Source: Patescibacteria group bacterium | GTDB taxonomy: Bacteria > Patescibacteriota > JAHJAL01 | Assembly (NCBI GenBank): GCA_049322675.1 | Contig: JBMORM010000009.1 | Location: 16,934 to 80,933 of the forward strand | DNA length: 64,000 nucleotides | Direction: 5' to 3' | Shown: piece after piece, positions 54,701 through 56,190 of the stretch | Layout: each line of letters starts with the position of its first letter | Position numbering within the stretch: position 1 is the first letter of the stretch | Position numbers and translations under genes: made by a program | The notes under the pieces: model-generated | What the model was told of the DNA's origin: nothing | Seen by the model: only the letters and a program-made list of their open reading frames with translations | The model's database searches: none

Positions 54701-56190
54701 AAGGAGGTGATCCATCCGCACGTTCCCGTACGGATACCTTGTTATGACTTCGTCCCAATTGCCAGCCCCGCTTTAGTTCGTTTTAAAAACGAATGTCGAG
54801 TGTTGCTGACTTTCGTGGCGTGACAGGCGGTGTGTACAAGACCCGGGAACGTATTCACCGCGGTATGTCTGACCTGCGGTTACTAGCGATTCCATCTTCA
54901 TGAGGGCGAGTTGCAGCCCTCAATCTGAACTTAGAGAATGTTTATTAGGATTAGCTCCATCTTGCGACTTGGCGAACCTGTTGTCATTCCCATTGTAGCA
55001 CGTGTGTGGCCCAGGACGTAAGGGCCATGCTGATTTGACGTCATCCCCACCTTCCTCTCGGTTACCCGAGCAGTTTCGTTTGACACTTGAAACAAACGAT
55101 AAGGGTTGCGCTCGTTGGAGGACTTAACCTTACATCTCACGACACGAGCTGACGACAACCATGCAGCACCTGTCATAGGGTTCCTTGCGGCACTCCTCCG
55201 ATTAAGGAGGATTCCCTAGATGTCAAGTCCTGGTAAGGTTCTTCGTTTTGCGTCGAATTAAACCACATGCTCCACCGCTTGTGCGGGTCCCCGTCAATTC
55301 CTTTGAGTTTTAGTCTTGCGACCGTACTCCCCAGGCGGGATACTTGACGCGTTAGCTGTGACTACTGACGGGGTCGATGCCGCCAATAGCTAGTATCCAT
55401 CGTTTACAGCGTGGACTACCAGGGTATCTAATCCTGTTTGCTACCCACGCTTTCGCACTTAAGTGTCAGCATTAAGTTAGTAAGTTGCCTTCGCCATTGG
55501 TGTTCCTCCTGATATCAACGGATTTCACTCCTACACCAGGAATTCCACTTACCCCACTTACGCTCTAGTAAAACAGTTTCGTATATATTCTTCTGATTAA
55601 GTCAGAATATTTAACATACGACTTGTTTAACCACCTACATGCGCTTTACGCCCAATCATTCCGCTCAACGTTTGCCACTCACGTATCACCGAGGCTTCTG
55701 GCACGTGATTAGCCGTGACTTATTCCCATGGTACAGTCAGATTTCTTCCCATGGAAAAGCAGTTTACATCCCGAAGAATGTCATCCTGCACGCGGCGTCG
55801 CTCCGTCACCCTTGCGGGCATTGCGGAATATTCCCTACTGCTGCCTCCCGTAGGAGTGTGGGCCATATCTCAGTCCCACTGTGGGGGATCTTCCTCTCAG
55901 AACCCCTAACCGTCATAGCCTTGGTAAGCCATTACCTTACCAACTAGCTGATAGTACGCAGGCCCCTCCTCAACCGCCGTAACTTTACTAAAGCCAACAT
56001 ATAGAAAGCTTTAGACTATCAGGTATTAGTCCACCTTTCGGCGAATTATTCCTGAGTTGAGGGCAGGTTCCAACGTGTTACTCACCAGTCCGCCACTATT
56101 CTACACTCGTCTTGCGACAAAAATAGAATCGTTCGACTTGCATGTATCAAGCACGCCGCCAACGTTCGAGCTGAGCCAGGATCAAACTCT
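54701..56190 (-). rRNA. rrs: 16S ribosomal RNA, complete (~1490 nt), not followed by a 23S gene in this window
   Basis: The minus-strand 5' end matches AGAGTTTGATCCTGGCTCAG and the 3' end matches ...GGATCACCTCCTT; internal 806 and 1400 regions recognised. Confidence 0.95.

Follow-up and report, generated by a model that had tools for sequence, protein, structure and literature searches.

Compensated base pair swaps in the decoding center of a 16S rRNA gene from a sparsely sampled Patescibacteria lineage

The 16S rRNA gene and its two swapped decoding-center pairs

We analyzed a 64,000 nucleotide stretch of DNA (positions 16,934 to 80,933 of contig JBMORM010000009.1, assembly GCA_049322675.1, referred to as the window) deposited under the name Patescibacteria group bacterium, which carries a complete 16S (small subunit, SSU) rRNA gene on the minus strand. 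The Rfam family RF00177 places the gene at 54700–56197 (1498 nt) with a score of 1461.9 bits at a gathering threshold of 50; the match covers model positions 1–1533 and is not truncated. A first-pass annotation had located the gene at 54701–56190, which was essentially right in extent, without giving the strand. The gene contains neither an insertion sequence nor an intron and is 70.7% identical to rrsH of Escherichia coli (MAFFT), whose numbering is used throughout. All sequence strings were verified by MAFFT alignment with rrsH and by Rfam alignments, and every variant string given in the first-pass annotation was found again in this way.

Among the functional or modified positions that we tabulated only 522, 527, 532, 1404 and 1497 differ from E. 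coli. Identical are G530, A790, G926, C1054, G1338/A1339, C1400–C1403, G1405–C1409, G1491–C1496 including A1492/A1493, U1498, G1516 and A1518/A1519, and the 505–507/524–526 pseudoknot as well as the anti-Shine-Dalgarno sequence (CCUCC) are canonical. Further compensated swaps are present at 36:548, 377:386, 511:540 and 617:623; all four affect positions that are conserved in 47 comparison sequences and have changed specifically in this lineage. Judged by its sequence, this would be a working rRNA gene and not a decaying copy.

The first of the two swaps lies in the 530 loop, which comprises the site of primer 515F (positions 515–536; 55683–55704, minus strand) and reads GTGCCAGAAGCCTCGGTGATAC in both the MAFFT and the Rfam alignment. 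Compared with E. coli the site shows C522A, G527U and A532G (A522 at 55697, U527 at 55692, G532 at 55687). The Rfam consensus structure contains the pairs 521:528 and 522:527; A522:U527 is therefore a compensated pair, as had been proposed before, and is judged compatible by Infernal. If two substitutions were placed at random in the 22-nt site, they would fall on an internal pair and leave it Watson-Crick paired with a probability of approximately 0.003. Folding the 530 hairpin on its own, a check suggested in the first-pass annotation, remained ambiguous: the minimum free energy (MFE) structure of the window adopts the register 520:527/521:526, since C526 is normally engaged in the pseudoknot. 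The pairing in the loop is decided by comparative structure and not by energy.

At 55704–55689 the window reads exactly GTGCCAGAAGCCTCGG, with A522 paired to U527. This string is the 530F-site variant of “OP11 & WS6 & OD1” of Nunoura et al. 2012 (PMC4103545), who also give GTGCCAGAAGCGTCGG as an OP11 variant of the site; in their primer table A522 appears only jointly with T527. The window has the 515–530 string, A522/U527 and the 530F/515F-type primer failure in common with this variant. In contrast to it the window adds G532, found in 14 of 121 listed sequences with the variant, and a U1404:A1497 pair, which among the listed carriers occurs only in the window and in L063, a metagenome-assembled genome (MAG) of the Patescibacteria. 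We scanned one genome per GTDB species with the 530 string of the window, leaving position 532 free, and obtained matches in at least 120 species representatives. Among the matches listed, most belong to the Microgenomates and other groups of the Candidate Phyla Radiation (CPR), namely Davies-, Woese-, Collier-, Roizman-, Curtiss-, Shapiro- and Pacebacteria and Paceibacterota; the same string is also found in a complete TM6 genome (CP011212, L025) and in a WS2 MAG (L017). Of the 121 listed matches 102 have A at position 532, 14 have G and 5 have C. A CPR-type 16S with A522:U527 is also present in several MAGs that bear the name of Methylomirabilis, Clostridia, Nanoarchaeia or Pseudomonadales (for example L010, L007, L101 and many “uncultured Pseudomonadales/Gammaproteobacteria” loci), which casts doubt on the labelling or the binning of these contigs.

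The second swap is located at the top of helix 44. On its 5’ strand (positions 1390–1410; 54819–54839, minus strand) the window reads TTGTACACACCGCCTGTCACG, with CCGCCTGTCAC at 1399–1409, both showing C1404U (54825). On the opposite side positions 1488–1542 read GACGAAGTCATAACAAGGTATCCGTACGGGAACGTGCGGATGGATCACCTCCTTT and show G1497A (54745) in the MAFFT alignment. A1497 also falls into the site of primer 1492R (positions 1492–1513; 54729–54750, minus strand), which on the plus strand reads TACGGATACCTTGTTATGACTT; the two mismatches previously reported for this site were located by the alignment at 1497 and 1508 (U1508 at 54734). The first-pass annotation had correctly noted the change in the 1400 region, but listed it apart from its partner G1497A. 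Because 1404 pairs with 1497 in the Rfam consensus, the change in the 1400 region and one of the 1492R mismatches are a single C:G to U:A swap, and the U:A pair is marked compatible by Infernal.

A scan of metagenomes for U1404 alone yielded at least 120 contigs, which form 63 single-linkage clusters at 90% identity. All 13 loci tested score as bacterial SSU rRNA. At position 1497, readable in 100 contigs, 96 have A and 4 have G, and the C1404 sequences among the listed matches of the 530 variant have G1497 in 53 of 53 cases. Combining the genome and the metagenome scans, in neither of which sequences had been selected on position 1497, we counted 53 sequences with C1404/G1497, none with C1404/A1497, 98 with U1404/A1497 and 4 with U1404/G1497 (Fisher p = 3e-37). 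In an alignment of the 3’ minor domain of 109 sequences (A1) the pair is U:A in 62 and C:G in 47 and unpaired in none; over the whole alignment 99.9% of cells are paired, dropping to 24–45% in slid controls. Covariation at 1404:1497 exceeds chance.

C1404:G1497 has been termed universally conserved, its disruption impairing tRNA binding to the A- and P-site (PMC3900107). As far as it is recounted there, mutagenesis of the E. coli pair (Cunningham et al. 1993) indicates that pairing at this position, which adjoins the P-site codon, matters for tRNA binding. The window carries the same pair at the top of helix 44, but naturally as U:A; this swap recurs in at least 120 metagenome contigs, which conflicts with the designation as universally conserved. 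No report of a natural U:A at this pair turned up in our literature searches, which covered U1404/A1497 and the variant strings.

The U1404 contigs had been chosen without regard to the 530 loop, which was readable in 71 of them. C522 with G527 occurs in 67 and A522 with U527 in 4, and no contig has a one-sided change; 64 loops are canonical (C522, G527, A532) and 3 differ solely by G532. U1404:A1497 without the 530 variant is thus found in many other lineages, and both swaps together occur, among the matches listed, only in the window with its relatives L063 and L194 and in the loci L132, L137, L139 and L173. The latter four form a CPR-like metagenome lineage only 75% identical to the window that reads GTGCCAGAAGCGTCGGTGATAC (A522, G526, U527, G532); the combination of swaps could go back to shared ancestry or to convergence. 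G526 would disturb the pseudoknot pair 505:526 unless 505 changed too. The 16S gene of L132 is linked to tRNAs and a 23S gene.

Two further groups with U1404:A1497 were noticed. In a rumen and gut group PheT is 79–83% identical to proteins of “Clostridia bacterium” and “Candidatus Caccovivens” MAGs; the U:A pair is therefore not restricted to candidate phyla. L178 (Ga0310786_10000309) combines the U:A pair with a canonical 530 loop and a PheT 79% identical to “Candidatus Caccovivens sp.”, and no 23S gene follows its 16S gene in the 10 kb of the locus that lie downstream of it. About 10 rumen or gut contigs resemble it, including L123, L128, L155, L161, L200, L211 and L231. The other group (L127, L140, L156, L185, L204, L217, L232) consists of AT-rich SSU genes in which helix 44 carries a long insertion and the 3’ end reads ATAACCTCCTT; many tRNAs lie nearby, and the genes probably encode organelle or endosymbiont rRNAs.

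Helix 45 (positions 1506–1529; 54713–54736, minus strand) folds into a stem of 10 bp without mismatches, capped by a GGAA loop (-15.5 kcal/mol, z -5.45), and retains the dimethyl-A sites 1518/1519. It had been described as carrying two compensatory pairs, which we also find in comparison with the Rfam bacterial consensus: U1508:A1527 in place of G:C and G1515:C1520 in place of C:G. In comparison with E. coli the changes are A1508U/U1527A and G1514C/C1521G. All 10 pairs of the helix are maintained across the 109 aligned sequences, 44 of which have U:A at 1508:1527 and 37 G:C at 1515:1520; these swaps are common, everyday variation. Helix 17 lacks 17 nt of the bacterial consensus (Rfam model positions 453–469, absent between 55739 and 55740, minus strand), helix 10 is about 3 nt shorter and helix 6 has approximately consensus length in the Rfam alignment. 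CPR 16S rRNAs have been reported without parts of helices 6, 10 and 17 in a paper on CPR ribosomes that does not mention the 530 loop, helix 18, helix 44 or decoding (PMC9297842).

Phylogenetic position and primer sites

A ClpC-like protein encoded in the window (12694–15222, minus strand) shows 100% identity to MFZ5391731.1, which is encoded on a 373,927-bp contig of a MAG with the label “Patescibacteria group bacterium”, an assignment given by the submitter and not by a marker-gene tree. About 10 relatives of this protein follow at 65–88% identity and the next at 56% or less, a drop which indicates a small and rarely sampled clade. The named relatives belong to Patescibacteria, Peregrinibacteria and CPR2. 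The nearest 16S sequence is L194, a metagenome contig (98.3% identity over 834 nt), followed by L063 (JBAZOB01) with 89.5% over the full length; all other retrieved sequences are at most 76% identical to the window. The 16S signature of the window recurs in L063 and L194, which are independent assemblies. In a neighbor-joining tree of 49 full-length sequences the window and L063 group with 100% bootstrap support and join WS2-like and other CPR sequences (L010, L017, L041) at 54%. The ClpC identity, the OP11/WS6/OD1 string in the 530 loop and the shortened helix 17 agree with the earlier suggestion of a candidate-phylum lineage.

The ribosomal proteins uL1, bL9 and uL30 are frequently lost in CPR bacteria; uL1 is encoded in the window (45454–46224), whereas genes for bL9 and uL30 would be located beyond the 64 kb. 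We also considered an alternative genetic code but rejected it, since 4 of 40 Pfam-supported open reading frames (ORFs) end with TGA and ORF lengths are normal; the standard code applies to the window.

Checking primer coverage in silico we found the mismatches concentrated in 515F, 519R and 534R (3 each) and in 1492R (2). For 515F this holds for both versions of the primer, one mismatch being located 2 nt from the 3’ end. Primers 1392R/1391R have one mismatch near the primer 5’ end and 1525R has one 3 nt from its 3’ end. There are no mismatches to 27F, EUB338, 341F, 785R, 806R, 907R, 926R and 1100R. The first-pass annotation had expected the lineage to escape standard amplicon surveys, which applies to primer sets with 515F, 519R or 534R but not to 341F/785R, 806R and the other primers with a perfect match. 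The organism would accordingly be missed by V4 surveys based on 515F and by surveys using 519R or 534R, but not by V3–V4 surveys with 341F/785R.

CPR 16S genes evading 515F/806R are said to have been described by Brown et al. 2015 and Eloe-Fadrosh et al. 2016. According to Schulz et al. 2017 (PMC5644168), surveys with 515f/806r would overlook many Parcubacteria, Microgenomates and Saccharibacteria, and the failure of 515F in CPR bacteria is thus already published and textbook knowledge for the group. The gene of the window resembles these cases in its CPR affiliation, the mismatch to the Earth Microbiome forward primer and the shortened helix 17. In contrast to them it is free of insertion sequences and introns, its 806R site is perfect so that only the forward primer fails, and 341F/785R would amplify it. 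We regard it as a concrete case of a known primer blind spot.

Compensatory evolution and alternative explanations

We consider it highly probable that the window carries a functional 16S rRNA gene of a sparsely sampled Patescibacteria lineage, in which the swaps reflect ordinary, nearly neutral compensatory evolution. Two normally near-invariant pairs have been exchanged on both sides with the helix geometry kept: C522:G527 to A:U in the 530 loop, together with A532G, which is the known OP11/WS6/OD1 variant, and C1404:G1497 to U:A next to the P-site codon. Watson-Crick pairing is retained at both pairs, and elsewhere the decoding center is canonical. The likeliest cause would be nearly neutral compensatory evolution in a fast-evolving lineage with a reduced genome, and the swaps were probably eased because most CPR bacteria lack RsmG, an enzyme that needs G527. 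In E. coli RsmG methylates G527; with U527 this modification (m7G527) is therefore impossible. The rsmG gene occurs in less than 10% of CPR genomes compared to more than 90% of other bacteria (PMC12641178), and we found no GidB/RsmG match among the ORFs scanned in the 64-kb window. Some points weigh against this interpretation. The link between RsmG loss and G527 is drawn from frequencies in the literature, the class-level placement is tentative given the 54% node of the neighbor-joining tree, the functional status of the gene is deduced from its nucleotide sequence, and our reading of the genome, including a second 16S copy and rsmG, is confined to the window.

The swaps could alternatively be adaptive, altering decoding fidelity or the surfaces that bind streptomycin, hygromycin or other aminoglycosides, and would then confer intrinsic tolerance or a changed mode of decoding on the lineage. 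Both pairs lie in the decoding center, three decoding-center changes coincide in one clade, and the conservation ascribed to C1404:G1497 as well as the impaired tRNA binding upon its disruption would fit a functional effect. Loss of m7G527 in E. coli is moreover associated with low-level streptomycin resistance. Against this, both pairs remain Watson-Crick, which is the classic neutral pattern, the two swaps mostly occur apart, as seen from the largely canonical 530 loops of the U1404 contigs, and U1404:A1497 is found in ecologically unrelated lineages including gut Clostridia. We therefore regard an adaptive origin as rather unlikely. To a similarly small degree we give credit to a more far-reaching reading, in which the window, L063, L194 and the approximately 10 ClpC relatives would represent an undescribed deep clade of Patescibacteria with a remodelled decoding center (A522:U527, G532, U1404:A1497). 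Remodelling and the loss of modification enzymes, RsmG among them, would have evolved together, with a measurable change in decoding fidelity or in the intrinsic sensitivity to aminoglycosides, and C1404:G1497 would be a recurrently swapped site whose state tracks some feature of translation.

An even smaller probability falls to the gene belonging to another deep lineage that shares the 530 variant, such as Dependentiae/TM6 or WS2, and not to the CPR. The TM6 and WS2 genomes among the matches of the 530 string and the weak tree grouping, which takes in a WS2 sequence, speak for such an origin, as does the placement of WS2 outside the Patescibacteria group by NCBI. They are opposed by the label of the MAG with the identical ClpC, the affiliation of the named ClpC relatives, the CPR-like truncation of helix 17 and an identity of only 71.9% between the window 16S and the TM6 sequence. 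Finally, we rejected a degenerate or pseudogenized copy or an assembly or binning chimera foreign to the genome, either of which we hold to be very improbable. The G+C content of the gene (49%, compared to approximately 35% in the surrounding DNA), its isolation from a 23S gene and the frequency of mis-assembly at rRNA genes in MAG contigs would be compatible with this origin. However, rRNA genes are normally richer in G+C than the rest of AT-rich genomes, the RF00177 score falls inside the range of the other bacterial SSU genes that we scored (1255–1548 bits), and the core functional nucleotides are all intact with the changes being compensated. In addition the flanks are syntenic in independent assemblies, upstream in L063 and downstream in L194, which argues against mis-assembly.

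The decoding-center pairs 522:527, the site of m7G527, and 1404:1497 are naturally and repeatedly swapped despite their invariant reputation, the latter in dozens of lineages including gut Clostridia. It is mildly new that this clade also swaps 1404:1497 and that this “universal” pair has been swapped repeatedly in nature. Such natural variants allow the identity of the pair to be tested apart from pairing itself. The swap at 522:527 furthermore suggests a testable connection, in that G527 may have been freed where CPR bacteria lost RsmG.

Surroundings of the 16S rRNA gene

Rfam searches gave no match to a 23S (large subunit) or 5S rRNA in the window, whose other RNA genes are a tRNA-Ile(GAU), a tRNA-Ala(UGC) and an L10 leader and nothing more. 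The tRNA-Ile (53058–53132, plus strand) is convergent with the 16S gene, an arrangement also found in L194, and may be a remnant of the usual spacer tRNA that would not be co-transcribed with the 16S; the tRNA-Ala (37218–37290) is 17 kb away. Upstream of the 16S gene, an ORF at 56423–56965 and a VirD4-like ATPase are syntenic in L063, and downstream the tRNA-Ile, an ORF at 51751–53004 and a P-type ATPase are syntenic in L194. The usual rrn operon thus appears to be broken up in an arrangement conserved in both relatives, and we predict that the 16S is transcribed alone, unlinked to 23S and 5S. Unlinked rRNA genes in bacteria have reportedly been described by Brewer et al. 2020. The window resembles them in its solitary 16S gene with a terminator-like hairpin of its own and in the absence of 23S and 5S genes from 64 kb, but differs in the tRNA-Ile that remains nearby on the other strand and in being flanked by a conserved hairpin of 100 nt and by leader and trailer arms.

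The leader arm (56231–56253, minus strand) pairs with the 20-nt trailer arm (54516–54535, minus strand) at -24.2 kcal/mol. L063 has equivalent arms, the distal half of which differs on both sides. Since the duplex of whole leader and whole trailer is only about 2.4 standard deviations better than shuffled sequences and the arms are conserved in L063, we propose only these specific arms as a stem, which probably serves as an RNase III-type processing stem bracketing the stand-alone 16S. Directly 3’ of the gene a long hairpin of 100 nt (54585–54684, minus strand) has an MFE of -47.3 kcal/mol (z -8.4). L194 and L063 have retained this hairpin, and at 9 of its pairs both sides have changed among the three sequences. 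No Rfam family was found for it, a permissive search of the trailer giving spurious microRNA-like matches far below threshold; the hairpin may act in processing or constitute a small RNA. A terminator-like hairpin followed by a T run (54458–54478, minus strand), detected by a consensus scan only, would end a 16S-only transcript.

Between the tRNA-Ile and the 16S gene lies an ORF of 424 aa (53167–54441, minus strand) with a weak FliL-like N-terminus and no other family match. It is absent from L194 (98% 16S identity), in which the tRNA-Ile is located about 75 nt from the match to window position 54501. The difference would be either a recent insertion in the lineage of the window or a deletion in L194. 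On the other side the VirD4/TraD-like coupling-protein ATPase (819 aa; 57607–60066, plus strand), conserved in L063, adjoins the 16S gene; the small ORFs flanking it gave no family match.

Housekeeping genes in the window encode NusA, HisRS, RelA/SpoT, MreB, MurA, Obg, ProRS, RRF, EF-Ts, S2, L1, L11, L10, L7/L12, NusG and YbeY. The nusG-L11-L1 and L10-L7/L12 clusters (38855–47312, minus strand) are approximately 6.4 kb apart and separated by genes for a 245-aa protein, thymidylate kinase, thymidylate synthase, DHFR, a dCTP deaminase-like protein, a deaminase and a 677-aa beta-propeller protein, with the L10 leader being retained at 38855–39001. At the edge of the window, which cuts the gene, a large secreted or surface protein with internal repeats is encoded at 1–2440 (minus strand, at least 725 aa); the G+C content of this gene is 0.44 in comparison to approximately 0.35 in the rest of the window.

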